A stretch of 64,000 nt of DNA from an uncultured bacterium (GTDB lineage Bacteria > Patescibacteriota > Patescibacteriia > CAIQCM01): contig OY970181.1 of the NCBI GenBank assembly GCA_963708045.1, positions 515,740 to 579,739 of the forward strand, written 5' to 3'. Made by a program: the position numbers and the translations under genes. Below are positions 317-58,620 of this stretch, piece by piece; position 1 is the first letter of the stretch, and every line of letters begins with the position of its first letter. Under the pieces are notes generated by a model. It worked only from the letters and a program-made list of their open reading frames with translations, ran no database searches and was not told the DNA's origin.

Positions 317-342
317 TTCGTGAGAGAACGACGTCTCAAAAT

Positions 343-378
343 AAAATCCCGCCTCGAGCGAACTCGCGGCGGGATTTT
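343..378. terminator. bidirectional intrinsic terminator-like hairpin (aaaatcccgcc ... ggcgggatttt)
   Basis: 11-bp perfect arms with an A-tract before and a T-tract after; sits between the convergent ORF 2-316 (+) and radA (-). Confidence 0.6.
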
Positions 379-395
379 TGCAATTTATTAAAGTT

Positions 396-1700
396 TTAAA
401 AATTTAATCCTTTTAGCGCATCGGCGATCGTTCGGCTGTCGGGTGGAGAAACGATTTTTTTAAGGCCAAAACGCAGGGCTTCGGTAATGCGGCGGTCGGA
501 GCCGCGCACGGTGCGTAGTTCGCCGCCAAGCCCGACCTCGCCAAAGGCGCAGAGGTCAGAGGGAAGTGGTTTGTTTTTGGCGGCCGAATAAATAGCAATC
601 GCAACGGCAAGGTCGGCGGCTGGCTCGCGTAATTTTATTCCGCCGACAATGTTAATGTGCACGTCGGCTTTGCCAAGGTTAAGGCCGCCGCGCGACGAAA
701 GAACGGCCACGATCATTTGTAGGCGATTAAGGTCAAAACCCGAGGCGCGCCGTACGGGAGCGCTATAAGACGACGGGTGGACGAGTGCCTGAACTTCAAC
801 AAGCATTACGCGCGAGCCTTCAAGCGCGGCGGTAATCGCCGAACCGGCGAGGTGCGACCGCTCGCGGACGAAAAGCTCCGAAGGATTGGGGACTTCTTTT
901 AACCCTTTTTCTTTCATTACAAAAACACCGACCTCTTCGGTTGAACCAAAGCGATTTTTTTCGGCGCGCAAAACGCGGAATTGTGATTCGCGATCGCCTT
1001 CAAGCGACAAGTTAACGTCAACGAGATGTTCCAGCGATTTTGGTCCGGCCGCCGAGCCTTCTTTGGTAACCTGTCCGATAATAATTGTCGGCACGCCAGA
1101 CTTTTTTGCGGCATCGGTTAAAATAGCCGCCGAGCTTCGGACACCAGCCAGCGAGCCGGCATCGGCACCCGGAGTTTTCATTGTTTGGATGGAGTCAATA
1201 ATCGCGAGCGATGGACGTTCGTTAGTAATTGTTGCGGCAACGCGGGTGGCATCGGTTTCGCCAAGAAAATTTATTTTTGTAAGATCGGCGCCGATGCGGT
1301 CAAGGCGCATTTTTACTTGCTCAACGCTTTCTTCACCAGAAACATAAAGCGTTTTCGCACCCGTGCGCCCAAGCTCGTTCGCGATTTGCGCCGCGAGCGT
1401 GGACTTGCCGTTCCCGGGTTCGCCGCAAAGCAAAATAACTTCACCAAGAACAAGACCGCCGCCGATCACGCGGTCAACCTCATTAATTCCGGTTGGTGTT
1501 CGCTCACTGCTTACCGAAGAAACATCGGCAAAGGAAACTGTTTTGGCGGCGCCAGCGATCGGCGCTGAGACGGTCGCTTTTTCCGTTTTTATTTCTTCTC
1601 TTACTGAACTCCACGCGCCGCATTCCGAACAGCGCCCGATCCACTTAGGGAACTGGGCGCCGCATTTTTCGCATTCAAAAATCGTTTCAGGTTTTGGCAT
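396..1700 (-). CDS. radA: DNA repair protein RadA/Sms
   Basis: N-terminal C4 zinc ribbon (CEKCG...CSECG), RecA-like Walker A GEPGNGKST, KNRFG motif, Lon-protease-like C-terminal domain. Confidence 0.9.
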   Translation of the reverse strand: MPKPETIFECEKCGAQFPKWIGRCSECGAWSSVREEIKTEKATVSAPIAGAAKTVSFADVSSVSSERTPTGINEVDRVIGGGLVLGEVILLCGEPGNGKSTLAAQIANELGRTGAKTLYVSGEESVEQVKMRLDRIGADLTKINFLGETDATRVAATITNERPSLAIIDSIQTMKTPGADAGSLAGVRSSAAILTDAAKKSGVPTIIIGQVTKEGSAAGPKSLEHLVDVNLSLEGDRESQFRVLRAEKNRFGSTEEVGVFVMKEKGLKEVPNPSELFVRERSHLAGSAITAALEGSRVMLVEVQALVHPSSYSAPVRRASGFDLNRLQMIVAVLSSRGGLNLGKADVHINIVGGIKLREPAADLAVAIAIYSAAKNKPLPSDLCAFGEVGLGGELRTVRGSDRRITEALRFGLKKIVSPPDSRTIADALKGLNF

Positions 1701-3130
1701 TAGAAGGCAGAGTTACCGGTTCCGTAAGGTCGATCGCAAGGTTTGGCGCGTTTGGCACCAAGCGGTAAATTATATTCAAAGTGCCACCACTCCGGACAAT
1801 AACGCACCCAGCCCGCTTGGTTCATAATTGATTCAAGGGCGTCAATGCGAGCTTGACTCATATTCTCTGAAGTGAGTTCGTTCCCTTTTGAAATAAGGTG
1901 AATATCAACCGCGTGGCCCGTAAGATGGGCGCCGCTGCAGGTAGTGCCAGTGGCGACGTGTTTTCTGGCTTCTTCTTCGGAACCATACTGCGCAACGGCG
2001 TCTCTAAATTTTGCTTGTTGTTCGGCCTGTGTTCTTATGGCGTCAACAACTTTTAGACCGGAAAAATTCGCGCCGCTTCCTGGTTCTTTTGGTGGGTTTC
2101 CTGGGTCAACGGTTTTGGCGGCAATTTGTCCAGCTTGCCCTAGCGCGCCATTCGTGTCGCTCGTGAGACGATTATCTCCGGCGGCCGCAGTTATGTTTGA
2201 AGTTCCAGAAATGTTCGTTAATGTTGCTGCGTCGGCGCAGGTAAAATTCCCAATGTCCGAGCCAACGTCGGCAAGCGGCAACGGCACGCCGGTTACGGAT
2301 TTTAGAGTTATTGATTTTAAAGCAGTTAGTTGTGGATTGATAAGTTGAAGCGCAGTGTATGAACCAAGAGCAAGCAAGAGGCCGATAACCGCGCTTGTGA
2401 TCATTGTTTTGGCTTCGGAAATTTGCGGCGCGCTCCCCGCGGCAATAAGCCAGCGAAAACCACCAACCATAATCATAATGACGGCGAGGACGGCGGCCAT
2501 CGCGACGCCGTAGCGGTACAAGGCGCTAATGTAGACGGCAATGTAGGGGATATTAATGTCGCCGTTCGCGTCCTGGGTTGCGACCAAGTCGGAAATATTT
2601 AAAGTCGGAATGTCAATCATTAATTTTGGATTGACAGCGGTAAAAGGAATTGCGGCTGGCGTGGTTGGTACAGTGCCGCCAGGAGAGGTGGTCTCGGTTT
2701 TGGCGCCGCATTCGGGAACCAGATCCATTGAAGTTTTAGGAATCTCGCTCAGGAAAACATAGCCGGCGATCGGCGGTGTGACCGTTGAGCAGTTTTCTTT
2801 TGGACCGTTTGTTTCGGCGCAGATATTGCCGCCTGGGTTTGTCAGGCAGGTGGTTGTTGCGGAGTCGCAAGGCGGCGGGGTTGGCGTTGTTCCACCGGAA
2901 GAGCTTCCTGGTGGGGCGAAAACGCAGGTGTTAGAAATATATTTATCGCAAAAAGTTGGATCTGTTTCACAGTGGGCTTGGGTTGCACCAAACGCCGCGC
3001 AACCTTGCGCCGGCGGCGGAAAGCATTTGGCCATTTCGCTGCTTTTGGTAATACAACAAAATCTAGCCATTGTTGGCAGCGGTGTGCAAAGAAAAAAAGT
3101 TAAAATTGTCGCGAAAATTATTTTTTTCAT
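1700..3130 (-). CDS. secreted Cys-rich protein with a TrbC/VirB2-like membrane hairpin and a C-terminal peptidase M15 (VanY / D-Ala-D-Ala carboxypeptidase-like) domain
   Basis: Signal peptide; ~14 Cys in the first 130 residues; two TM helices flanking RWLIAAGSAPQISEAK (TrbC/VirB2 pilin-like topology); C-terminal SGAHLTGHAVDI ... EWWHFEY zinc-peptidase M15 motifs; stop overlaps the radA start (TAATG). Confidence 0.6.
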   Translation of the reverse strand: MKKIIFATILTFFLCTPLPTMARFCCITKSSEMAKCFPPPAQGCAAFGATQAHCETDPTFCDKYISNTCVFAPPGSSSGGTTPTPPPCDSATTTCLTNPGGNICAETNGPKENCSTVTPPIAGYVFLSEIPKTSMDLVPECGAKTETTSPGGTVPTTPAAIPFTAVNPKLMIDIPTLNISDLVATQDANGDINIPYIAVYISALYRYGVAMAAVLAVIMIMVGGFRWLIAAGSAPQISEAKTMITSAVIGLLLALGSYTALQLINPQLTALKSITLKSVTGVPLPLADVGSDIGNFTCADAATLTNISGTSNITAAAGDNRLTSDTNGALGQAGQIAAKTVDPGNPPKEPGSGANFSGLKVVDAIRTQAEQQAKFRDAVAQYGSEEEARKHVATGTTCSGAHLTGHAVDIHLISKGNELTSENMSQARIDALESIMNQAGWVRYCPEWWHFEYNLPLGAKRAKPCDRPYGTGNSAF

Positions 3131-3132
3131 TT

Positions 3133-3783
3133 TTATTCCAGAAAAATATTTATTTCCTGAGCGGTGACGTTGCCCGAATATACCTCGCCATTAATAAAAA
3201 GATAGGGGAGCGAATCAATGCCGGCTGCGTCGCCCGAAGCAAGTCCATAATTGACTTCGTTTTTATGTACTAGGTTTTTAAGACAAGAAGAAAACGTACC
3301 TAGATTAAGCTTAAGCTCAGCGGCAAGGGTAGTGTATTTTTCTTCGTTTAAAGAATTTTGATATTGAAAAAGCGCGTCATGAAATTGCCAAAATTTTCCT
3401 TGGTCGTTCGCGCAGCGTGCTGCCTCGGCAGCCGCCGCGGCGTTGGCGTGTCCCGACATTGGATAATCTTTCCAAACAAGACGCGTATCGTTTCGGAGTT
3501 TTACCAAAGCGGCAAGTTCGCTTGCCGCATTGGCACAAGCGGCGCATTCATAATCGCCAAATTCAATAATCGTGTTCACGGCATTTTTTGGTCCCAAGAA
3601 CGGGTCAGACGCCAAAACACCAGGTACGACAATGTTATCGGCGTTTTTATTTAAATCAAAGTCAGCGATGCGCGGCGTTGTGGTGGGACTAGAAAAAACA
3701 AAAAAAGCAAAAATACCAATTACCGCAATCGCGGCCAGGGAAATATAAATCGCCAATTTTCCGGAGAGCTTATCGTCGGTCAT
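3133..3783 (-). CDS. membrane-anchored DsbA-like thiol:disulfide oxidoreductase (thioredoxin fold)
   Basis: N-terminal TM helix; thioredoxin CxxC active site (GDYECAACA); DsbA-family length and spacing. Confidence 0.7.
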   Translation of the reverse strand: MTDDKLSGKLAIYISLAAIAVIGIFAFFVFSSPTTTPRIADFDLNKNADNIVVPGVLASDPFLGPKNAVNTIIEFGDYECAACANAASELAALVKLRNDTRLVWKDYPMSGHANAAAAAEAARCANDQGKFWQFHDALFQYQNSLNEEKYTTLAAELKLNLGTFSSCLKNLVHKNEVNYGLASGDAAGIDSLPYLFINGEVYSGNVTAQEINIFLE

Positions 3784-5000
3784 TAGCGGAGAAGCATATT
3801 TTTAATAGAGCCGGTTCTGGCGTCCAAAAGAAAAAGATTGGTTTCGTCTTTTGAAATTTGTATTTTTGAAACGGTCATATCGTTTTCCGGACGGCCAATA
3901 AAGGACACCGTGCCGCTGGCTGCATTAATGCTATAAATGGAGTCGGGCGTATTGTTTAAGATTGTTGGATCCAAGCCGGAGCCTTCGGGTAAAACATCGG
4001 GGACGGCGCAATAGATGGTTTTGTTTCCAAAAAAAACGCATTTGTCGGCGGTGGTAAAAAGTTCGGTCGTAATACGGTCGCCGCCCGGCGTGGCGCCCGT
4101 TCCATCAACGATATAAAGACGCGGCTTGTAGTCGTCGTCGTTTGAAGCGGTGGAATAAAGAATTAGCGCGCCGTCGGGTGACCAAAGTGGGTCAAAATTT
4201 TCTCCTTGAACCGTGATGCCGGGCAAGTTTTCTCCATTTTTTCCGATCAGCAAAATAACTTTACTGCCAGGGTCGGCAAGCGGCCCGGTTTGTGAGAAAG
4301 CGGCAACTTGGCCGTTTGGCGATTGCTTAATAATTACTTTGTCAGCGTTCGCGCCCATTGGTTCAATCGGTTGCGGATCACTGCCGTCGCCTTTAGAAAC
4401 AATAAGCCAGTTTTGGTCGTTTGCATCATCGGTATTTTTTGTCGCCAGGTCGCCGTTTTGGGAAAAAGAAAATTCTGACCAAGTTTTTGGCAGCGTCGTC
4501 TGTTTTTGCGAGTCAAAATTAAAAGTTATTTTACTGCCGTCGGGAAATTCAATAACCGCGGTTTTGGCGTCGGTTGACCAGGTTACATTTTGCACGTCGG
4601 GAAAAATTTGCGAAGAAAGTTCTTGTTTGGTTCCGTCTGGTTTTACGGTGAAAAACTTTCCCGTTGCCCGATCATAATAATTTACCGATCGTCCATCTGT
4701 GCCAAGCGTTGCTCCAGCGGTTTCTCCGGAAACCAAAGTTGAAACAATCGTGAGTCCGCCGCGAGCCACAAGCGAGGCGCTCGTAAGGCTGGTATTGGCG
4801 TTTTCGTTTCCTGGAACAACGGGACGATTTCCAGCCTGGCCAGCCGAAGGAAGATTGCCGGAAGGAGTATTTATGTTGGTATTTTCTGGCGGCGGCGTTA
4901 CCGCGCTTGGTTTAAAAAAGAAGAAATAAATGGCATAAGCCATGCCGCAAACAACGGCGAGAAGTAAAATGCCCAAAGCGATGCGTTTAGTTAATGACAT
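3783..5000 (-). CDS. membrane-anchored TolB-like WD40/PD40 beta-propeller protein
   Basis: N-terminal TM helix; repeated WSPDG / KPDG / SPNG blade motifs typical of PD40 repeats; overlaps the dsbA-like start by 1 nt. Confidence 0.5.
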   Translation of the reverse strand: MSLTKRIALGILLLAVVCGMAYAIYFFFFKPSAVTPPPENTNINTPSGNLPSAGQAGNRPVVPGNENANTSLTSASLVARGGLTIVSTLVSGETAGATLGTDGRSVNYYDRATGKFFTVKPDGTKQELSSQIFPDVQNVTWSTDAKTAVIEFPDGSKITFNFDSQKQTTLPKTWSEFSFSQNGDLATKNTDDANDQNWLIVSKGDGSDPQPIEPMGANADKVIIKQSPNGQVAAFSQTGPLADPGSKVILLIGKNGENLPGITVQGENFDPLWSPDGALILYSTASNDDDYKPRLYIVDGTGATPGGDRITTELFTTADKCVFFGNKTIYCAVPDVLPEGSGLDPTILNNTPDSIYSINAASGTVSFIGRPENDMTVSKIQISKDETNLFLLDARTGSIKNMLLR

Positions 5001-5085
5001 AGTTGTTTATTATAACGCATTATCAAAGTTTGGGCACGTAATTATTAACTTTTAACTGTTAACTGTTAACTTTTTGGAAAATAAC

Positions 5086-17615: not shown

Positions 17616-17646
17616 ATTTATTAGAATTAAGAGATTGGAGATAAAA

Positions 17647-18804
17647 ATAAATATGCCCAAAGATCAAATAACGCATCCGCATCACCGCAACCTGTCGGTA
17701 AAAGTTTACAAAAAAATCGCGATTATTTTTTTGGGACCGGTTTTGATTTTGGCCGGCGTGGTTTTGGCGGCAACACTTTCTCGGGCGACAATTACCGTTA
17801 CCGCTAACCAAATTCCTGTTAGCGCCCCGGCAAAAATAAATATCGCGGGCGAGGAATCTATGTTGGATACGGTGCTTGGAAAAGTTTTTAAAACAACACT
17901 AGAAGACACAAAAACGGTTACGCCAAAAGGCAGTGGCGTCGTTAAGGACGAGCTAGCGACGGGTACGGTCGCGTTAATTAATAAGCGTGCTTCGGCGCAG
18001 ACGCTTATTCCAACAACGCGGCTTTTAACCGATACCGGCATCCTTTTTCGGATTAAAGACAGAGTAAATATTCCGGCCGGCGGCGAACTTAAAAATGTCG
18101 CGGTCTATGCCGACAAGCCGGGTGCTTTGGGTAATATTTCCGCAACAACTTTTACGATCCCTGGTCTTCCCGTCGCGCTTCAGAAAAGCGTTTACGCTGT
18201 TTCTACCGCGCCGATGACTGGCGGTACGGTGACGGTTGTTGGCGTTTCAAACGATGATATAAATAACGCGATCGCTGATCTTAATACCCAACTCGCGGCT
18301 AAGGCGATAGAATCTTTTTCCGACGCCATAAAAAAATCCGGCTACGATGGGATTGTTTCAAAAACTGACGAAGTATCAAGATTGGTTTCGGCCAAAGTCG
18401 GCGATACGGTAGACGCGTTTACGATTCAATATAAAGCGACTATTACCGCTGTTGCTTTTGATCGTTCTAAATTTACCAAAATTGCGGAGGGGGTTGCTCA
18501 CCAGGCGATTCCATCGGACACCGAACTTAAAACATCAAACGCCGCGACGGTAATTCCCGTTATTCAAAACGCCGACGCTAGCGCCGGAACAGCAACCTTA
18601 GTCGCTAATCTTTCTGGCACGGCAACGCTTTCGGCCGATAATTCAATTTTAAATAAAGAACGTCTTGCGGGGCTTAATGCCGATACGGTTGTCGGATATT
18701 TAAAAAGTTTTAGCGCTGTTTCCGACGCTAAAGTTTCTCTTTGGCCATTCTGGGTGCACAAAACGCCGTCGCTTAAGAGTCATATTCAGGTTAAGGTTGA
18801 ATAA
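17647..18804 (+). CDS. hypothetical membrane-anchored extracytoplasmic protein
   Basis: SD-supported ATG at 17647 (the track start at 17635 is less likely); N-terminal TM helix; Thr/Val/Ala-rich beta-like repeats; no known domain. Confidence 0.45.
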   Translation: MNMPKDQITHPHHRNLSVKVYKKIAIIFLGPVLILAGVVLAATLSRATITVTANQIPVSAPAKINIAGEESMLDTVLGKVFKTTLEDTKTVTPKGSGVVKDELATGTVALINKRASAQTLIPTTRLLTDTGILFRIKDRVNIPAGGELKNVAVYADKPGALGNISATTFTIPGLPVALQKSVYAVSTAPMTGGTVTVVGVSNDDINNAIADLNTQLAAKAIESFSDAIKKSGYDGIVSKTDEVSRLVSAKVGDTVDAFTIQYKATITAVAFDRSKFTKIAEGVAHQAIPSDTELKTSNAATVIPVIQNADASAGTATLVANLSGTATLSADNSILNKERLAGLNADTVVGYLKSFSAVSDAKVSLWPFWVHKTPSLKSHIQVKVE

Positions 18805-37330: not shown

Positions 37331-38200
37331 TTATTTATGATTGAAATATTTTTCTAAAATTTTTAGATTTTTGTTGACTGGGCGGATAACTTCGCTCACG
37401 TCTTTGCCGATTGGTTCGGGGGTTGCGGTTATTTTTCTGCCAAGGGCGTTTTCGTATTTATAAATCAGGAGAGCGATTATTTCCGATGGGTCTTTTTCCA
37501 TTTTAATAACTCGTCCGGTGCGATTATCAACCAAAAGGCCGTCAATTTGATTGGCCATTATTAAGGCTTTGTTCCCGATTTGGTTTCGGATTTGGGCGAT
37601 AATATCGCTCGTGATTTCATAAAACAATCGATCGCGCGTTGGTGTTTTTTTGTATTCAAGCGGCGAGCCGCGCGAAATTCGTCTCCCCGCGTAAAAATTA
37701 CCAATAAACGCCGCCATTCCCGCAAGTAAAATAAGTCCGATTAAGCACAGCACGAAATCGCTTAAGAAAATGCCAAAAATTTTTGGTTCAATTTTGAATC
37801 TAAATTTTGACGATGCCGGCGCAATCTGTCCGGGATAAGTCACGGTGCTGGTTAATGTATAAACTCCGCTTCCTAGTCCGTTGGGTATCTGGATCGGACG
37901 TATAAAACTGCTGGTAGTTTCCACGGCAACGGTTTCTGATATTGAAGAAACGACGACGTTGCGCGGACTGGTAATGTCGTATTCAATTAAGATATCAACA
38001 CGTTTGGGTGCGCCAAAATTGGATAGCACAACCGAGGTGGGGAGAATGTCGCCCGACGCAAAACGGGTTGCCCCGCCACCGATCGCAAAGTTTGAAAAGA
38101 CTGACCCTTCGGCCAAAGCTGTCGTAGGTGACCCTAAAAATGACAGGGTTATTAAGGTGACAATCCAGGGGCATGGAAATTTTTTTAATTGAGTAATCAT
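37331..38200 (-). CDS. hypothetical secreted protein with a C-terminal TM anchor
   Basis: Signal peptide (TALAEG), beta-rich region, C-terminal hydrophobic helix. Confidence 0.4.
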   Translation of the reverse strand: MITQLKKFPCPWIVTLITLSFLGSPTTALAEGSVFSNFAIGGGATRFASGDILPTSVVLSNFGAPKRVDILIEYDITSPRNVVVSSISETVAVETTSSFIRPIQIPNGLGSGVYTLTSTVTYPGQIAPASSKFRFKIEPKIFGIFLSDFVLCLIGLILLAGMAAFIGNFYAGRRISRGSPLEYKKTPTRDRLFYEITSDIIAQIRNQIGNKALIMANQIDGLLVDNRTGRVIKMEKDPSEIIALLIYKYENALGRKITATPEPIGKDVSEVIRPVNKNLKILEKYFNHK

Positions 38201-38916
38201 ATTTTATCGCGATTTTTATTTTGTCGCCATATTTGGCGAAGGGGGATAATGCCAGCAATGATGACAAAAAATAATTCAATAATGATTAAAAAGATTAAAT
38301 TAGATTTTTGTGGTGTCTTTGATGGGGAAATTTGGACGTCAAAAAGCGGCGGAAAAACGATTTTTTGAGTTTCTGGCGCTGACAAGACTGGTGGCTCAAT
38401 GGCGGCGGTTGGTGTTGGTGTGCTGGTTTGCGGTACGAGGACGCTCACGAATACATTTGAATATGGCGCGGTCAATGAATTTTGGTTTTTAGAATTTAGT
38501 GCAAACGAGTCTGGATAAATCGCGATGTTGCCTGTTCCCGTTGCTTTGGTTTTAAAAGTAATCGTTCCGAGTTCGGCAGGTTGATCAATTCCTCCTGGGT
38601 AGCCAGCAGTTAAATAGATTGTCTCGGTATTATTACTAATTAGACTGCGATTTGCGGCCGGTAAACTTATCCATTGGTCACTCCAACGAAACCATCCAGC
38701 TTCTAACAAATTAATTGGAAATATTATTGCCGCTTGGACCGTAAAGATTTTTTCATTTTTTGGGGAAATATTGATTCCTAAATTTATATTCTCGCCAACG
38801 TTGGCTGTAATCGGATTTCCATCAAAAAATAGAGTCGTTGCCAAGGCTGGGTAAAATGCCATAAAGGTAGATGTAAAAAATATTATGGCGAACGATTTGT
38901 ATCTCATATCGTCCAA
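38197..38916 (-). CDS. cohesin-like domain protein with a C-terminal membrane anchor
   Basis: ITANVGENINLGINI...IFTVQAAIIFPINLLE and TAGYPGGIDQPAELGTITFKTKATGTGNIAIY match the cohesin beta-sandwich pattern; Pro/Thr linker, then a TM helix. Confidence 0.5.
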   Translation of the reverse strand: MDDMRYKSFAIIFFTSTFMAFYPALATTLFFDGNPITANVGENINLGINISPKNEKIFTVQAAIIFPINLLEAGWFRWSDQWISLPAANRSLISNNTETIYLTAGYPGGIDQPAELGTITFKTKATGTGNIAIYPDSFALNSKNQNSLTAPYSNVFVSVLVPQTSTPTPTAAIEPPVLSAPETQKIVFPPLFDVQISPSKTPQKSNLIFLIIIELFFVIIAGIIPLRQIWRQNKNRDKI

Positions 38917-39527
38917 TGGACCATAAGCTGATTAAAATCAAAAATATCAACTCGCCCGCCCGCGTCGTAATCGGAAGGGTTAATTTTATTTTGCGTGCCC
39001 CAATTCGCAACCAGCGCGTTAAATTCGTTTAGGTCAATGCGGTTGTCTTGATTAGTGTCATAGGGCTGAGTTGTGTCGTTGTTTGGAACTAAGATAATGC
39101 CATCGGAATAAATATCCGAACACACGTCCTCAGTATTACAAAATCTCGCATAAATTGTTTTAAGTCCGGGCGCGTTGGGAAATTCGTGGGGTGTGTGATT
39201 AATTTTATAATTTGTATCAAAATTAAGGCGTCGTTTTTCACCAAAAGCCGGGTCTTCGGAGATCTCAACCCAAGTTGTGTCTGGTTTTCCAAAAAGACTA
39301 ATGGTTACTTGTGGCGAAGAAGTGTTCGCTTCGTCGTTGTTAATTTTGATGCCATAGTTTTCCGTTTCGGATGTGTTTATATCGCTTAGCGTCGCCGTTG
39401 TTTTAGTGAAAATTAATTTTTTGTTAATTTCTAAACCAACGCTCACATTGTTTTCTAGTGCGAACGTCAATACTGCCAAACAAAAATATTTTACAGCGCC
39501 TTCAAAGACCAGATTATTTTTTTGCAT
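38904..39527 (-). CDS. dockerin-type (double EF-hand-like Ca-binding repeat) secreted protein
   Basis: C-terminal DTNQDNRIDLNEFNALVANW and DYDAGGRVDIFDFNQLMVHW are the two ~22-aa dockerin type I repeats; N-terminal signal/TM. Confidence 0.55.
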   Translation of the reverse strand: MQKNNLVFEGAVKYFCLAVLTFALENNVSVGLEINKKLIFTKTTATLSDINTSETENYGIKINNDEANTSSPQVTISLFGKPDTTWVEISEDPAFGEKRRLNFDTNYKINHTPHEFPNAPGLKTIYARFCNTEDVCSDIYSDGIILVPNNDTTQPYDTNQDNRIDLNEFNALVANWGTQNKINPSDYDAGGRVDIFDFNQLMVHWTI

Positions 39528-52484: not shown

Positions 52485-53042
52485 ATGCTGACCGAACTTG
52501 CGAATGAAAAAGAGTTGGCTGAACGGGCGACGAAAGACGGTGACGCTTTTGCCGCGCTTTACGATTTTTATTTTCCAAAAATTTGGGCGTACACGATTAG
52601 GCGCGTCGGACACACGGAAACGGCTGAAGATATTGTTTCACAAATATTTTTAAAAATTACCGAAGCTTTGCCGCGCCGAAAAAATAACGCGCCCTTTGGC
52701 GCTTGGGTTTTTCGGATCGCTACAAATACAATCATTGATCATTATCGGGCAAGTGGTCGGCACCGTGAAGAAGAAATCGTTGCCGCGGAAAATATTCCCG
52801 AACGCGGTTTAGCTCCTGACGAATTTTCCGAGGCTAGGCTCGTGTTTAGAGAAATAGAAACAATCCTCGGCGAACTTCCCGAGCGCGACCGACGCATTGT
52901 TCACCTTAAATTTTTTGCCGGCTTAAGTAACGGTGAAATCGCCGTAACGGAAAAAACTAAAGAGGGGAATATAGCAATAATTGTTCATCGGGCGCTTCAA
53001 AAAATACGTAAACAGAGCAAATTTTATGGAAAACTTGAATAA
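52485..53042 (+). CDS. ECF-subfamily RNA polymerase sigma-70 factor
   Basis: Region 2 (YDFYFPKIWAYTIRRVG...AEDIVSQIFLKI) and region 4 HTH (LPERDRRIVHLKFFAGLSNGEIA); TACAAT box 7 nt before the ATG. Confidence 0.85.
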   Translation: MLTELANEKELAERATKDGDAFAALYDFYFPKIWAYTIRRVGHTETAEDIVSQIFLKITEALPRRKNNAPFGAWVFRIATNTIIDHYRASGRHREEEIVAAENIPERGLAPDEFSEARLVFREIETILGELPERDRRIVHLKFFAGLSNGEIAVTEKTKEGNIAIIVHRALQKIRKQSKFYGKLE

Positions 53043-56000
53043 TCAAGACGAAAAAAACTTAAATAGCGAAGAGGTAAAGCGTAATGAAAACACTGGCGGA
53101 GCGTTGGAAGAGATGGAGAGCAAAATCTCCATGCTTATCAACCATAATAATACGGACGCCTCAGACAAATTCCGCGAATCGTTAAAAACGCGGGTACTTG
53201 AGGCGCACGCCAAAAATAATATGCCTCGTTTTTCCGGCTTTAAGAATTTGATCGGATTTTTTTCCGCTCGCCGCTTTTCGTTTGCCATAACGATCGTTCT
53301 CTTGCTCGCGGTCGTCGGCGGTGTTTTGCTTAATGGTTATTTTGGCGGACGCGAACGGAGTATTGCTAAAATTTTTATTAATCCCGCCTACGCCGCCGAC
53401 GACTTTTCACTTGTCTCGCTTGCGGCTGATTCCGCCGGTGTTACTCCCGATTCGGTCTACAAACTCACAAGCAAAGAATCGTTTTCCACGGCCGACATTA
53501 AAGCTGGACTAAGTCTGACGCCAACGATGGAGGTCGGTGTCAAACAAACAGCGGATAAAGAATGGATGATTACGCCGAGTGAAAAATTGCCAGCCAATTC
53601 GCTTTTAAAAATTGCCCTTGCCGCGGCAATAAACGACAACGGAACAATCACGACGCGCGATTTTTCTTGGGCGTTTCAAGTTAAAGATCATTTCCGCGTT
53701 CTTAATTCGCTTCCTGGGAACGCGGCAACCTCGGTCCCGGTGAATACGGGTATAGAAGTAACTTTTAGCCATCCAAACTTAAATGGCTATGAAAAATATT
53801 TTGCCATTAGTCCCGAAGTTAAAGGACGTTTTGAATATCACGCCCGCACCGCCGTTTTTGTGCCAACCGAACCACTCAAGGCTGGTGAGCTTTATACGGT
53901 GACCATTGGCGCTGATCTGGTACTAACCGAATCCACCGAAAAATTGGGCGAAGATTATAAATTTAGTTTTGAAACGGCTAAAGAAACCAAAGACGCTGGC
54001 GGTTATGAAAATTGGTTTGGCGTTAATGAAAAAATGGTGCAATTCAGTTCCGACGAAAGTCCGTTCATTGGTGTTTATGGCGACACCAAGGCGCAAACCA
54101 CGGCTAATGTATATTCGTTTTCTTCGGCCGACGCTTTTCTTGCGGGTATAAATGAACGCAATAAATATCCGCGCTGGACGGAAAAATGGAATAATTATCA
54201 CTATGATGTTTCGGGGCTTGCCAAAGTCACGTCGTTTACGCCAAAAATTGAAACGCAAAATTACGCCAACTTCTTTGTTTTCCCGTCAAAATTGCCGATT
54301 GGTTTTTATCTCACCGAAGTCGCGTATCAAAACAAAACTTTCCAAGTCTGGATGCAGGTGAATGATTTAAACGTTTTTTACAACATTGATATTAACCACA
54401 CGCTGGTTTGGGTAAACCGGATTGGTGGCGTTTCGCCGGCTACCGAGGCGACGGTTTCGGTCGGTGATTTGGTACAAAATGTAAAAACGGACGCTAGTGG
54501 CGTGGCAACGTTTGATATTCCGGCGGCGTATCAAGATGCCAAAAGCAAATATGCCGACCAGCCGCTTTATCTAATTGTTCGCGCGGGCGCCTCAACGATG
54601 ATTACTGATTTTTATCCCGGCGGGAAAACAGCCGCCAGTCGTTGGTCATATTTTTATACCGACCGCCCGCGCTATCAATCAACCGATACGATTCATTTTT
54701 TTGCGATGACTCGGGATCGCGCGAGCGGCATCGCCTCGCCCGGAAAATACTCGGTAATTCTCCGCAAATCCGGTTGGTACGATTATTATTACAACCCGGT
54801 AAAAATTGTTGAAACCGAAGTTGCGCCGGACGCCTACGGCACAATGACGGGCGCGCTTTCGCTTGCCGATTTGCGCCCCGACTACTATGAAGTCGCGCTT
54901 ACGCTTGACGGCGAAACAATTGCGACAAGCTGGGTAAATGTTCTCCCTTATACCAAACCGGCCTACTCAATTTCGGTAACTAACGACCGCGCCGCGGCCT
55001 TCTCGGGCGAACAGATAAATTTTACCGCGACGGCGAAATTTTTTGACGACACGCCGGCCGCCGGAATTAAAATGAAGGTCGTAGACGAATTAGGGATAAA
55101 GATTGGCTCTTTCACGACCGACGAACAAGGACAAATAACTTTTTCTTCAACCCAAGATTACGACGGAACAAAATATTGGCCGCAATGGAAGTATTTTACC
55201 GTTAGTCCAGAGTCGTCGGAGCTTGGCGACATTAGCGGCTCGGCAAACGGCGCTTGGTACGGTCCGCGCGTTTACGGAACAAGCGAAGTTAAGTATCCGG
55301 AAAAAGGCCGCGCCGAATTAAAGATCAAAGTTCGTAACGTTGATATTAACAAAATTAATTTCCCAAATAACGTGCAATGGGATGAAGATTGGCAAGGGTC
55401 GGATCCGGCTGCGGGCATAAATATTTCTGGCGAAGTAATAAAGATTACTTACAACAAGGTTGAAACTGGTACAGCTTATGACTTCATCAACAAAACGTCT
55501 TATAAAACTTATCGTTACGATCGGGTGGAAACAAAAGTTGACACGCTTTCGCTTGTAACTGGCGCGGACGGTATGGCGCGTTACAGTCGCGCGGTTGAAC
55601 CGAACACTTTTTACAACATAAATTATAAAATCAGCGACGCGGCGCATCGCACCGAAGCGCACAACGACGGCTTCTATTATTATGACGGCAATACTTATTA
55701 TCGCGATTATTTCTCTTACGGGGAAAATGCGCAACCGACAATTGAATTTAACACGAGCGACCGTCTGTATTCGCTCGGCGACAAGGTTAAAGCGACGCTT
55801 TCGCTTAACGCTAAGCCGGTTTCCATGGCGCAAACTGACCGCATTCTTTTTGCCAAATACCAAAACGGTCTAAAGAGCTTTGTGGTGCAAGGGAGCCCAG
55901 TTTATGAATTTAATTTTTCCGAAAGCGATGTTCCTAACGTTCAGCTTTTTGCCGCCTGGTGGGATGGAAAAAATTATCACACGGCGCGAACCGACGGCTG

Positions 56001-58620
56001 GTGGGGGATGAGCGACGGCGGCGCGAAATATAAATATACTGATCGCGAACTCACGATTGACGCCGCTTTTGATAAAACGACGTATGCGCCAGGGAGCGAC
56101 GCTAAATTTTCAGTAACGGTTAAAGACAAGAATGGTCGTCCGGTCGCCGCCGCTCTAAATCTTAATTTGGTTGACGAAGCGTATTACGCGATTGCGAATA
56201 GCTCGGCAAATCCGCTCCAAAGCATCTACACGCCGCAATATTCGGGAATCATTGATTCGGCGGAAACGCAAGAACCGCCGCCTTCGGCCACGGCCGGCGG
56301 TGCGGAACGTGGTGGCTGTTTTGCCCCTGGCACGATGATTACGATGGCTGATGGTAGCAAAAAGGCGATTGAAAAAGTTAAAGTTGGCGACAAGGTGGCG
56401 ACACTCGCGAATCCGCTTAACGCCGATGTTGTAACAGGAACAGTTGGCGCGGTTTTTGAGCATACCGCGAATAAAATGATTTCCGTTAACAACGGACTTC
56501 TCAAGGCTACACCCGAACATATGATCTATGCGAGCGGCACTTTTAAAACCGCTGGCGAAATTGCGGTTGGAGATGTACTCCTTGGACTTAACGGGAAAAA
56601 GACGGTTGTCACTTCGGTTAAAGTTGTTTTTGAAAAAATTTCCGTCTACAATTTGCGTGTTGATCCATATCACACCTTTATTGCAAACGGTATCTATGTT
56701 CACAATGACAAGGACGGCGCCGTGCGTCAGAACTTTGTTGATGTCGCGCTTTTTCGCACGGTCACAACCGATAGCGCAGGCAAAGCGACAGTTGACTTTA
56801 AGTTGCCGGATAACGTTACTTCTTGGCGGCTTACGACACAGGCGATTGGTGCTAATCTTTCAGTCGGAATGTCCACACAAAAAATAAAAACCACCTTGCC
56901 GGCTTTTGTTGACGTTACCATTGGTAAGGATTATCTCGTAGGCGATCAGGTTGTTGCTAAACTGCGTTCGTTTGGTACGAACCTTACAGCCACGGACGCG
57001 GTTTCTTACGCTGTTACTTCGGAAGGGCTTGGCAACGCCTCATTTTCTTTTGCAACCGAAGGCAAAGCGTACCGTCCGACCGAAGTTAATCTGCCACCGC
57101 TCACATCGGGAAATTTCAACGTTACCTATTCAATGAAAAGCCAAAAAGGAAATGACGCCGTGCTTTTGCCGCTAAACGTTTCCAAGTCGTTTTTGCGGAT
57201 CAATAAAATCCTTTCATCCACTGATGTTTCGCCCGGGGTAAAGTTTTCTGCGCCTGGCGCAACTGACTCCGTAAAAATTACTTTTGCCGACGCGAGTTCA
57301 ATGAAATTATATCGGCCGCTTTCGGAACTTAGCTGGAGTTGGGGAAAACGCGTTGACCAAACGCTCGCGCATTCGCTTGCCGCCGATTTGCTTCTTAAAT
57401 ACTTTAAAGAAGATTGGCACGAAAATACTTTTGACGGCAGCGCGTATCAGCAAGCTGATGGCGGCATCGCGATTTTGCCTTACGGTTCTTCGGATATGGA
57501 TCTTTCGGCGCGTCTCGCGGCTTTAGCGCCGGAAAAATTTAGCGTCTCGGCGTTACGTCAATATTTTATGGCGGAAATTGATTCCAAGAATGCGACGCCC
57601 GAGACGGTGACTAACGCGCTTTTGGGTTTGGCGTCGCTCGGTGATCCGGTTTTGCCGCGGTTAGAGCTCTGGAAAGATAGAACTGATCTGACAATAGAAA
57701 GCCGCATGCGCGTTGCTCTCGCTCTTTACAAGGTCGGCGCGAACGAAGATGCGCGGATGATTTATAACGATGTGCTAAAGAGCGGCGAAAGTCGCGGTGC
57801 GTATTATCTCTTGTCCGGCAAAGACGAGAACGAAACATTACTGCGCACGGCCTTTTTGGGCGAACTTGCGGCCGCGCTTAATATGCCGGAACGCGACGCG
57901 CTCTGGGCTTACGTTACTGATCATAAATATGATAAAAAAATTGAAGTCCTGACCAACCTTGAAGATTTGTCGTTTGTTATGTTGGCTATCCCAACACTTA
58001 CGCCCGGTCCCTCTAAAGTCGCTTACGAACTTAAGGGAATGAAAAATGAAATTGATCTGAATGGCTGGGGTCAAAAAGTAATCAGACTTCAGGCGTCGGA
58101 ACTTGATAAATTGAACATCACCTCGGTGGAAGGAAAAATCAGCGCGGCGGTTTCTGCGGATGCTTCTATCACCGAAGTTGATCTGGTCGCGAACAAGGAC
58201 GTTTCCATTACCCGATCATATTCGGTGGTCGGCGGCGCCGATAATACAACCGACTTTAAGGACAATGATATTATTCGTGTGACGATTGACGTAAAAATTT
58301 CGCGCAATTCGCCGAGTCGTAATTATCAGGTGACGGACATTCTTCCGGCTGGCTTAATTTCGGCGACAAATGTTTATGACGCGTATCGTCCTTATGACAA
58401 CTATTGGAGCAACCCGTTTGATGTAAACGGCCAGCTTGTTTCCTTTAATGTTTGGAAGTACGGCGATCCGGATAAATATGGAAATTATTCGGAGACGATT
58501 CATTATTACGCCCGAGTAAAAACAAAAGGCAGTTACAAGGCCGAGCCGGCGATTATTCAGGCCTTTTCTGACCCAGGAACGATTAATTATTCTTCGGCTG
58601 GAATCGTAACCGTTAAATGA
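53026..58620 (+). CDS. anti-sigma-like giant membrane protein with alpha-2-macroglobulin-like MG domains and an internal Hint domain
   Basis: ATG 53026 overlaps the sigma gene by 17 nt (the track starts at TTG 52981); ~85-aa cytoplasmic N-region then one TM helix (FAITIVLLLAVVGGVLL); YFYTDRPRYQSTDTIHFFAMTRD resembles the A2M MG-domain motif TDRPIYRPGxTVHF; Hint domain at nt 56317-56706; ends with TGA. Confidence 0.55.
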   Translation: MENLNNQDEKNLNSEEVKRNENTGGALEEMESKISMLINHNNTDASDKFRESLKTRVLEAHAKNNMPRFSGFKNLIGFFSARRFSFAITIVLLLAVVGGVLLNGYFGGRERSIAKIFINPAYAADDFSLVSLAADSAGVTPDSVYKLTSKESFSTADIKAGLSLTPTMEVGVKQTADKEWMITPSEKLPANSLLKIALAAAINDNGTITTRDFSWAFQVKDHFRVLNSLPGNAATSVPVNTGIEVTFSHPNLNGYEKYFAISPEVKGRFEYHARTAVFVPTEPLKAGELYTVTIGADLVLTESTEKLGEDYKFSFETAKETKDAGGYENWFGVNEKMVQFSSDESPFIGVYGDTKAQTTANVYSFSSADAFLAGINERNKYPRWTEKWNNYHYDVSGLAKVTSFTPKIETQNYANFFVFPSKLPIGFYLTEVAYQNKTFQVWMQVNDLNVFYNIDINHTLVWVNRIGGVSPATEATVSVGDLVQNVKTDASGVATFDIPAAYQDAKSKYADQPLYLIVRAGASTMITDFYPGGKTAASRWSYFYTDRPRYQSTDTIHFFAMTRDRASGIASPGKYSVILRKSGWYDYYYNPVKIVETEVAPDAYGTMTGALSLADLRPDYYEVALTLDGETIATSWVNVLPYTKPAYSISVTNDRAAAFSGEQINFTATAKFFDDTPAAGIKMKVVDELGIKIGSFTTDEQGQITFSSTQDYDGTKYWPQWKYFTVSPESSELGDISGSANGAWYGPRVYGTSEVKYPEKGRAELKIKVRNVDINKINFPNNVQWDEDWQGSDPAAGINISGEVIKITYNKVETGTAYDFINKTSYKTYRYDRVETKVDTLSLVTGADGMARYSRAVEPNTFYNINYKISDAAHRTEAHNDGFYYYDGNTYYRDYFSYGENAQPTIEFNTSDRLYSLGDKVKATLSLNAKPVSMAQTDRILFAKYQNGLKSFVVQGSPVYEFNFSESDVPNVQLFAAWWDGKNYHTARTDGWWGMSDGGAKYKYTDRELTIDAAFDKTTYAPGSDAKFSVTVKDKNGRPVAAALNLNLVDEAYYAIANSSANPLQSIYTPQYSGIIDSAETQEPPPSATAGGAERGGCFAPGTMITMADGSKKAIEKVKVGDKVATLANPLNADVVTGTVGAVFEHTANKMISVNNGLLKATPEHMIYASGTFKTAGEIAVGDVLLGLNGKKTVVTSVKVVFEKISVYNLRVDPYHTFIANGIYVHNDKDGAVRQNFVDVALFRTVTTDSAGKATVDFKLPDNVTSWRLTTQAIGANLSVGMSTQKIKTTLPAFVDVTIGKDYLVGDQVVAKLRSFGTNLTATDAVSYAVTSEGLGNASFSFATEGKAYRPTEVNLPPLTSGNFNVTYSMKSQKGNDAVLLPLNVSKSFLRINKILSSTDVSPGVKFSAPGATDSVKITFADASSMKLYRPLSELSWSWGKRVDQTLAHSLAADLLLKYFKEDWHENTFDGSAYQQADGGIAILPYGSSDMDLSARLAALAPEKFSVSALRQYFMAEIDSKNATPETVTNALLGLASLGDPVLPRLELWKDRTDLTIESRMRVALALYKVGANEDARMIYNDVLKSGESRGAYYLLSGKDENETLLRTAFLGELAAALNMPERDALWAYVTDHKYDKKIEVLTNLEDLSFVMLAIPTLTPGPSKVAYELKGMKNEIDLNGWGQKVIRLQASELDKLNITSVEGKISAAVSADASITEVDLVANKDVSITRSYSVVGGADNTTDFKDNDIIRVTIDVKISRNSPSRNYQVTDILPAGLISATNVYDAYRPYDNYWSNPFDVNGQLVSFNVWKYGDPDKYGNYSETIHYYARVKTKGSYKAEPAIIQAFSDPGTINYSSAGIVTVK
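56317..56706 (+). other. Hint / mini-intein-like domain (130 aa) embedded in the giant protein
   Basis: Block A CFAPGTMITMADGS, block B TPEH, block G HTFIANGIYVHN; the residue after the terminal Asn is Asp, not Cys/Ser/Thr. Confidence 0.6.

Follow-up and report, generated by a model that had tools for sequence, protein, structure and literature searches.

We analysed a 64,000-nucleotide stretch of DNA from an uncultured bacterium of the Patescibacteriota (assembly GCA_963708045.1, contig OY970181.1, positions 515,740 to 579,739 of the forward strand), referred to here as the window. Four consecutive open reading frames (ORFs) on its minus strand, taken from the ORF list of the window, fill positions 396-5000. 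They encode a membrane-anchored propeller (gene 1, g1), a DsbA/MdbA-like oxidoreductase (gene 2, g2), a putative peptidoglycan peptidase on a pilin-type membrane hairpin (gene 3, g3) and RadA (gene 4, g4). Our subject is the g3 protein, which may be a wall hydrolase that serves a type IV secretion system (T4SS). Features of the locus are as follows.

5019..5069, minus strand: candidate promoter sites, TTAACA-17-AATAAT (10/12) and TTAATA-18-GATAAT, from a consensus scan and the intergenic sequence
3783..5000, minus strand: gene 1, membrane-anchored propeller of 405 amino acids (aa), from an AlphaFold2 (AF2) model, Foldseek, PD40 and synteny
3133..3783, minus strand: gene 2, membrane-anchored DsbA/MdbA-like oxidoreductase of 216 aa, from Pfam and hydropathy
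1700..3130, minus strand: gene 3, precursor of a hairpin-anchored M15B peptidase, 476 aa, from profiles, AF2 and conservation
3068..3130, minus strand: g3 aa 1-21, signal-peptide-like (MKK, hydrophobic core, PTMA), from hydropathy and sequence, with a putative cleavage site
2636..3067, minus strand: g3 aa 22-165, Cys-rich region with 12 Cys, from the Cys positions
2306..2635, minus strand: g3 aa 166-275, pre-hairpin motif and two-helix membrane hairpin, from PF18895, a hidden Markov model (HMM) and AF2
1703..2239, minus strand: g3 aa 298-476, VanY/M15B-type LAS zinc peptidase, from family profiles, invariant residues and fold
2035..2033, 1927..1925, 1906..1904, 1792..1790 and 1783..1781, minus strand: g3 key residues R366, H402, D409, E447 and H450, respectively
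396..1700, minus strand: gene 4, RadA/Sms, 434 aa, from TIGR00416 and Pfam
335..375, minus strand: terminator-like hairpin CCCGCC...GGCGGG (about 362..340) with a T-run, 3' of radA, from the sequence and a scan

Given putative promoter-like sites (consensus matches) that lie upstream of g1 only, just past the LemA terminator, and a GC-rich hairpin with a T-run directly beyond g4 that is a strong terminator candidate, g1 to g4 look like a single promoter-to-terminator transcription unit. An earlier reading of this DNA, made from the sequence only, had joined all four genes by 1-nucleotide (nt) stop/start overlaps. The four genes are real, but the overlaps hold at two of the three junctions: g1/g2 (3783) and g3/radA (1700) read TAATG, with a 1-nt overlap, while dsbA/g3 reads TAA-AA-ATG, with a 2-nt gap. 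Translational coupling of the four genes is plausible. The identity of g4 as RadA is clear at equivalog level (TIGR00416, 487.6 bits against a cut-off of 403), and its product includes a zinc ribbon, a RecA-like ATPase and a Lon-like C-terminal domain.

The C-terminal domain of g3 carries the zinc motif S-G-A-H-L-T-G-H-A-V-D, that is, HxxGxAxD with one residue more after the Ser than in the SxHxxGxAxD spacing that had been proposed; the EWWHFEY motif proposed with it is exact, at aa 447-453. H402-x6-D409 together with E447-W-W-H450 matches the M15B ligand pattern, with H402, D409 and H450 as Zn ligands. Among 106 sequences of the family R366, H402 and D409 are invariant, and Q371, G405, A407, E447, W449, H450, C298 and C465 are conserved in at least 90%. 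The four Cys of the domain (298, 398, 445 and 465) are conserved. VanY matches 97 of the 106 at E ≤ 1e-3 (best 1.1e-16) and Peptidase_M15 matches 75. A Foldseek search with the modelled domain (predicted local distance difference test score, pLDDT, about 70-89) returned the Shh-N structure 2wg4_A (E 2e-3, probability 1.00) and ChiX 5opz_A (E 5e-3, probability 0.99), which, with E-values as weak as these, argues moderately for a LAS fold in the model. Searching the PDB sequences with the family profile gave best matches, at weak E-values of 0.02-0.2, to 4mph/4jid (DD-carboxypeptidase family), VanXYg and YodJ/LdcB; within the VanY/LdcB/VanXY group the entries are 4mph/4jid, 4f78 and 4ox3.

The domain thus shares with VanY, LdcB (YodJ) and VanXY of the M15B group the Arg-...-Gln motif (AIRTQAEQQ), HxxGxAxD, ExxH, all zinc and catalytic residues and the predicted LAS fold. 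It differs from them in its four conserved Cys, its fusion to a pilin-like hairpin and its scores of 17-24 bits to any curated model. The VanX and VanXY equivalogs, whose cut-offs are 176-320 bits, were rejected as identities for g3. As judged from these features, g3 would be an extracytoplasmic peptidoglycan peptidase of the VanY/LdcB type (M15B, LAS).

Hydropathy agrees with the sequence-only reading on a signal-peptide-like start of g3, and hydropathy and AF2 both agree with it on two hydrophobic helices. The helices lie at about aa 200-234 and 243-265 by hydropathy and at 197-229 and 234-264 in the model, and are preceded by the conserved motif P.L.I.IP...PYI..YI. The hairpin is joined to the peptidase domain by a short linker. 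A local hairpin HMM ties the window protein and its relatives together at E 1e-17 to 1e-48, the local HMMs having been built from the family's own sequences. T4SS_pilin (PF18895) matches 64 of the 106 family members (best 1.1e-12) and 30 of 52 hairpin relatives (best E 1.8e-25), and it exceeds its cut-off in two orthologues from syntenic loci (L011, 42.1 bits; L013, 27.2 bits; L numbers denote loci and P numbers proteins). The hairpin had been assigned to the TrbC/VirB2 type. A pilin-type two-helix hairpin, probably of the PF18895 family, stands, but the TrbC match does not: PF04956 gave no match to g3 at E ≤ 1 and matched one of the 52 relatives (5.7e-4). Foldseek with the modelled hairpin returned generic helical hairpins only. 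The signal peptide would put the N-terminus of g3 outside the cell and the VirB2-like hairpin would enter the membrane and return, so that the Cys-rich region and the zinc peptidase would both face the wall.

Four proteins of the wider set (P0065, P0078, P0085 and P0111) carry three to four tandem T4SS_pilin-like hairpins per polypeptide, followed by a tail of 130-210 aa. They resemble fused "pilin arrays", which suggests that their hairpins form a membrane bundle and are not free pilus subunits.

The g3 protein has 17 Cys, where about 14 had been counted: the signal peptide contributes one, the N-terminal region (aa 25-141) 12 and the peptidase domain four. The Cys-rich region has no Pfam match and its AF2 pLDDT is below 50, the model of g3 being poor outside the hairpin and the C-terminal domain. 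Between orthologues its identity is 11-25% where the M15 domain keeps 46-64%. It is missing from some orthologues (e.g. P0008); when present, it retains about 12 Cys.

A family profile made from eight close homologues and searched against 1.84 billion representatives found 32,436 of them at E ≤ 1e-3 and 862 at E ≤ 1e-30. Hairpin and peptidase domain occur together in 112 of 164 retrieved proteins (about 107 of the best 150), and hairpin-M15 proteins are common, amounting to hundreds of clusters at 50% identity. The order signal peptide, Cys-rich region, pilin-type hairpin and LAS/M15 domain, as first described, is upheld at the level of this family. The closest named homologues of the window proteins come from Candidatus Uhrbacteria, Kerfeldbacteria, Veblenbacteria, Buchananbacteria and the "Patescibacteria group". 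The gene content of the window is of a housekeeping kind, and the organism is probably a Patescibacterium of the ABY1 type. Pattern scans for further relatives yielded one locus from GTDB genomes and five from metagenomes, two of the latter informative; a broad alignment (A5) held no stretch conserved enough for such a scan. Fusions of hairpin and hydrolase are visible as precomputed domain pairs in databases. In the literature that we searched, with incomplete coverage, we found no description of the fusions or of the propeller partner, and the supplements of PMC12102498, searched for fused domains, contained none.

Three genes of this family appear to have been shortened by gene callers, to 308 or 342 aa (L001, 7494-8924; L002, 7445-8875; and the Logan contig of P0001). 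A spurious ORF was also called on the opposite strand over the Cys-rich 5' part. The open frame runs for 477 codons straight after dsbA, and the genes are probably full length, like the 476-aa gene of the window.

The catalytic domain is exchanged within the family. Hairpin relatives carry SLT, Amidase_2, NlpC/P60, C39-like, M23, YkuD, CHAP, glucosaminidase or M15_4 domains at the C-terminus, and in L009 a phage-lysozyme version and a LAS-like version stand in tandem after dsbA. At the orthologous locus itself the domain is M15 in the window, L001, L003, L005, L010, L018 and L019, SLT in L007, M23 in L011 and L014, Peptidase_C39_2 in L012 and unrecognised in L013. Swapped catalytic domains fit a need for some wall-cutting activity, not for one specific trimming reaction. 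That SLT, M23 and C39-like domains can stand in for M15 points to an endopeptidase-like role for g3, not to resistance or stem trimming; because bond specificities are exchanged at one locus, making an opening in the wall would be the more natural task. The module of the window may be the version found in the ABY1 lineage of a Patescibacteria-wide family that couples a pilin hairpin to an interchangeable wall hydrolase.

Members of this family elsewhere lie in T4SS clusters. In a Kerfeldbacteria locus (L011) the gene order is PrgI, TraC-like, VirB4, two small genes, T4SS_pilin, a g1 homologue and T4SS_pilin+M23. Two distant hairpin-hydrolases, P0014 and P0015, follow PrgI, TraC-like, VirB4 and one further gene, and are followed by a gene of 435 or 439 aa, beside dnaA. 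The 439-aa protein after P0015 (L020) is a homologue of g1 (g1 HMM, E 1.7e-18; shared motif ADKC...YC.VP). Three other Patescibacteria loci thus have a hairpin-hydrolase downstream of virB4, with a g1 homologue adjoining it in both of those with readable DNA. In a published survey, patescibacterial T4SS clusters near dnaA have arrays of PF18895 pilins, and VirB1 homologues are mostly missing near virB4 (PMC12102498). The T4SS cluster of Southlakia epibionticum includes essential PF18895 pilins, the essential SEML1_0006, with lysozyme and Cys-protease domains, and the essential SEML1_0007, with a Hedgehog/DD-peptidase domain (PMC10633639). The role of the Patescibacteria T4SS has been described as completely unknown (PMC11665869).

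We propose that g3 is a wall hydrolase dedicated to a T4SS, a functional analogue of VirB1, PrgK and CwlT, and consider the chances of this evenly balanced. The g3 protein would open or remodel the cell's own peptidoglycan locally for the T4SS and its VirB2-like pilus, and the hairpin would dock the enzyme to the machine. We take wall opening for a T4SS to be its most likely job because the genes of family members elsewhere lie downstream of virB4 within T4SS clusters. Like VirB1 of Agrobacterium, PrgK of pCF10, TraG of pIP501, TcpG and CwlT of ICEBs1, g3 would be an extracytoplasmic wall hydrolase with exchangeable catalytic domains. It would be tethered to the membrane as in Gram-positive T4SS hydrolases, and its relatives are likewise encoded in T4SS clusters. 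VirB1 is functionally tied to the biogenesis of the VirB2 pilus. Unlike the VirB1/PrgK class, g3 has a VirB2-like two-helix hairpin as anchor and not a single N-terminal transmembrane (TM) segment or a lipid, an M15B/LAS domain instead of SLT, CHAP or LytM, an extra Cys-rich N-terminal domain, a paired propeller and DsbA, and no adjoining T4SS gene in the window. No sequence homology of g3 to VirB1 was found.

Within the Patescibacteria, SEML1_0007 is comparable to g3 as an envelope protein with a LAS/M15-type domain and a link to the T4SS, and proteins that bear the name "Peptidase M15B domain-containing protein" are its best structural matches. It differs in its length of 1113 aa and in being encoded directly beside virB4; the two were compared by description. 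The patescibacterial VirB2-like pilins (PF18895; SEML1_0014-0019) share with g3 a probably homologous hairpin, a signal peptide, a predicted topology with both termini outside, and the lineage. Where their length is on record (SEML1_0017-0019, 381-417 nt) they have about 125-145 aa, and they form arrays next to virB4 (PMC12102498, PMC10633639). In contrast, g3 is a single-copy, 476-aa protein encoded away from virB4, and its hairpin is flanked on either side by a large domain: about 145 aa between the signal peptide and the hairpin region and about 200 aa after it.

Several observations weigh against a T4SS role of g3. The 64-kb window contains no T4SS gene in profile searches of its proteins, and in 10 of the 11 other loci of the g1 type the module is not next to virB4 but has clpC or lemA on one side and radA on the other. 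The evidence from T4SS clusters comes from three non-randomly sampled loci (L011, L020 and the P0014 contig), the last of which is without DNA. Taken alone, g3 also falls below the Pfam cut-offs, with 18.8 bits (E 1.7e-3) against 26.6 for PF18895, 24 against 27 for PF01427 (Peptidase_M15) and 19.9 against 25 for PF02557 (VanY). Its assignment, and with it the M15 peptidase of the sequence-only reading, is upheld at the level of the family, by the VanY (97 of 106) and T4SS_pilin (64 of 106) matches, and the catalytic residues and LAS fold agree. The hairpin profile found no solved VirB2, TraA or other pilin among the PDB sequences, only a chance match to PsbZ (E 1.7), and the case for PF18895 being homologous to bona fide VirB2 is built on occasional, weak PF04956 co-hits, among the relatives and the Southlakia pilins. 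Finally, the M15B affinities of the domain favour trimming, typical M15B enzymes being stem-peptide carboxypeptidases and not wall openers.

The main alternative is a housekeeping autolysin or peptidoglycan trimmer in which the hairpin is an anchor typical of the lineage, the propeller regulates the enzyme and there is no link to a T4SS. The surroundings are in keeping with it: a glmM-like mutase gene, murI and lemA adjoin the module, and FtsW and ribosomal genes lie elsewhere in the 64 kb. So are the nearest solved relatives, which are carboxypeptidases of the LdcB/VanY type, and the module itself, which is single-copy and syntenic across divergent genomes, much like a core gene. The presence of the same anchor on a whole toolkit of wall enzymes is what autolysin tethering in monoderm cells would lead one to expect. 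Yet the replacement of M15 by SLT, M23 and C39-like domains at the same locus is hard to square with specific trimming, the anchor is probably homologous to a T4SS pilin family and not a generic TM segment, and relatives lie inside T4SS clusters at three loci, with the g1 homologue adjoining in the two that are readable. We regard this explanation as possible, though rather unlikely.

The sequence-only reading had suggested a wall-penetrating surface appendage. A link to a conjugation-type apparatus is independently supported by the three T4SS clusters, but nothing we found favours an appendage over plain membrane anchoring. In its strongest form the idea would be that the hairpin is a true pilin module and that the T4SS extracts g3 from the membrane and places it within a VirB2-like pilus or at its tip, where peptidase and Cys-rich domain cut and bind the wall of a host or partner cell. 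Both added domains of g3 are predicted to be on what is the outer side in known conjugative pili, as seen in structures of the F- and T-pilus. PF18895 pilins, to which the hairpin is probably homologous, are essential to S. epibionticum (PMC10633639), Patescibacteria are largely epibionts (PMC11665869), the catalytic domain is often swapped, and the N-terminal region evolves fast, as expected of a surface in contact with a host. Fast evolution could, however, merely reflect weak constraint, and the region is absent from P0008. A homopolymer in which every subunit carried two globular domains of about 150-200 aa appears sterically unlikely, and g3 is single-copy and outside any pilin array, the local hairpin HMM having found no second pilin-hairpin gene in the 64-kb window. 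An armed pilus is in our view improbable. A broader version, in which a large class of the patescibacterial VirB2-like pilins would bear an enzyme, in which the T4SS inserts hairpin-anchored hydrolases with fast-evolving Cys-rich heads into or onto the pilus as an armed filament that cuts the host wall, and in which the neighbourhood of radA and recG would then serve the import and processing of host DNA, seems to us quite improbable.

The order g1, (dsbA), hairpin protein, radA was found at L001, L003, L005, L007, L010, L012, L013, L014, L018 and L019, and across these syntenic loci the identity of g3 to the window protein is 34-70%. Of the 11 other g1-type loci, 10 have radA following the hairpin-hydrolase gene, and at least seven of these 10 have recG downstream in convergent orientation. 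Upstream of the module lie lemA/glmM in the closest relatives and clpC in L003, L010, L012, L014 and L019. A block of clpC, a small gene, propeller, (dsbA), hairpin-hydrolase and radA, with recG convergent, is thus kept across divergent Patescibacteria. A clpC-radA linkage is old in Gram-positive bacteria, as in the ctsR-mcsA-mcsB-clpC-radA-disA operon of B. subtilis, and the block resembles it with three envelope genes inserted. One of these loci, L010 (CAZLNR010000002.1; LemA, M48, glmM, ClpC, propeller, hairpin-M15, RadA, RecG), is titled "uncultured Gammaproteobacteria bacterium" and is fully syntenic with the Patescibacteria loci; the label or binning is probably wrong.

The adjacency of radA, which had been taken as a hint of coupling to DNA uptake, is therefore conserved, but a functional tie to uptake is speculation. 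Under such a tie the envelope module would be expressed together with radA (and recG opposite) because the apparatus would import DNA for RadA and RecG to process. RadA is needed for transformation in some bacteria. Besides the conserved position of radA and recG, the locus L009 has uvrA in the position equivalent to radA, and import of DNA or nucleotides by the Patescibacteria T4SS has been proposed (PMC11665869). The T4SS-cluster copies (L011, L020 and the P0014 contig), however, are without radA. The 1-nt overlap of g3 and radA is not kept either, with gaps of 41-141 nt in L001, L003, L007 and L010. Because radA is part of the wider block that runs from clpC, and because the overlap is not conserved, its adjacency can be explained without a function: it looks like inherited clpC-radA-recG synteny, and we hold a coupling to DNA uptake to be very improbable. 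If g3 is a T4SS wall hydrolase, its module would have been relocated to the clpC-radA locus in the lineage of the window.

The identity of g2 as a DsbA is well founded, with Thioredoxin_4 (PF13462) at 75 bits against 23.2 (E 1e-20), DSBA (PF01323) at 37.7 against 25.6 (E 2.4e-9), a CxxC reading CAAC at aa 80-83 and a hydrophobic segment at aa 6-36. Its proposed connection with the Cys-rich protein is plausible: not counting the window, 8 of the 11 syntenic loci that are readable have dsbA, and in L009 it likewise adjoins two other hairpin-hydrolases. The conserved Cys of g3 and a Cys pair of g1 would probably be oxidised by this upstream-encoded enzyme. No VKOR or DsbB partner was seen within the operon. 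With its N-terminal TM anchor, thioredoxin fold and CxxC, g2 resembles the MdbA/DsbA-type enzymes of Gram-positives and of the candidate phyla radiation (CPR). A membrane-anchored MdbA-like family (fam000318) is enriched in the CPR, where such enzymes have already been proposed as folding factors for secreted pilins (PMC6744442). In contrast to that proposal, the genes that adjoin g2 point to a hairpin-anchored hydrolase and a propeller as its likely substrates, and not to type IV pilins.

The locus L009 (Buchananbacteria, GCA_013359225.1, 8143-10864) encodes dsbA, a 332-aa T4SS_pilin+Phage_lysozyme protein, a 287-aa hairpin protein and uvrA. The 287-aa protein has a C-terminal ...RHWHVEFY domain, probably another LAS-type peptidase. 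This is a second case of dsbA with hairpin-hydrolases followed by a DNA-repair gene.

The g1 protein comprises a TM helix (aa 3-29), a disordered linker (aa 37-81) and a 7-bladed beta-propeller (aa 86-405) in an AF2 model of pLDDT 86.3. Cys321 and Cys331 are invariant in 33 homologues. The description of g1 as TolB-like proved too specific: Foldseek with the model matched generic 7-bladed propellers only, PD40 recognised one repeat (23 bits, barely over the Pfam cut-off) and TIGR02800 scored 18.5 bits against a cut-off of 343, which rules out TolB. The TolB architecture of an N-terminal alpha/beta domain and a 6-bladed propeller was likewise rejected for the model. In every g1-type locus examined the propeller gene precedes that of the hairpin protein. 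This suggests that g1 is a previously unnoticed conserved partner of the hairpin-hydrolases, and g3 may well work together with this membrane-anchored propeller, its invariable genomic neighbour.

PF18895 matches have been counted as pilins in a published gene survey (PMC12102498). Our results suggest that many such "pilin" matches are wall hydrolases on a pilin-like hairpin, and caution against counting pilin genes by profile match alone. The hairpin-hydrolases may supply the wall-opening activity that is missing near virB4, and they offer specific targets for genetic, localisation and biochemical work, whether in culturable Saccharibacteria or in heterologous systems.

Some other features of the window were noted. 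No tRNA gene, and no Rfam family at gathering threshold, was found in the 64 kb despite several genes for ribosomal proteins and translation factors. Three minus-strand genes at 37331-39527 (289, 239 and 207 aa) adjoin the gene of a PAS histidine kinase and have no confident Pfam family, the middle one having a weak Cohesin match. Between dnaE and thrS, positions 17635-18804 of the plus strand encode a 389-aa protein with a weak Baseplate_J match (E 5.7e-4); the chromosome of S. epibionticum also has a gene annotated as "baseplate J/gp47 family protein". A plus-strand ORF for an ECF-type sigma factor (52485-53042) lies upstream of, and overlaps, one for a bacterial alpha-2-macroglobulin-like protein of 1879 aa (52981-58620, plus strand; Big_5, bMG3, MG2, A2M, bMG10). 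In the latter an inserted Hint/PT-HINT (intein-like) module occupies about aa 1107-1243, immediately ahead of the A2M domain.

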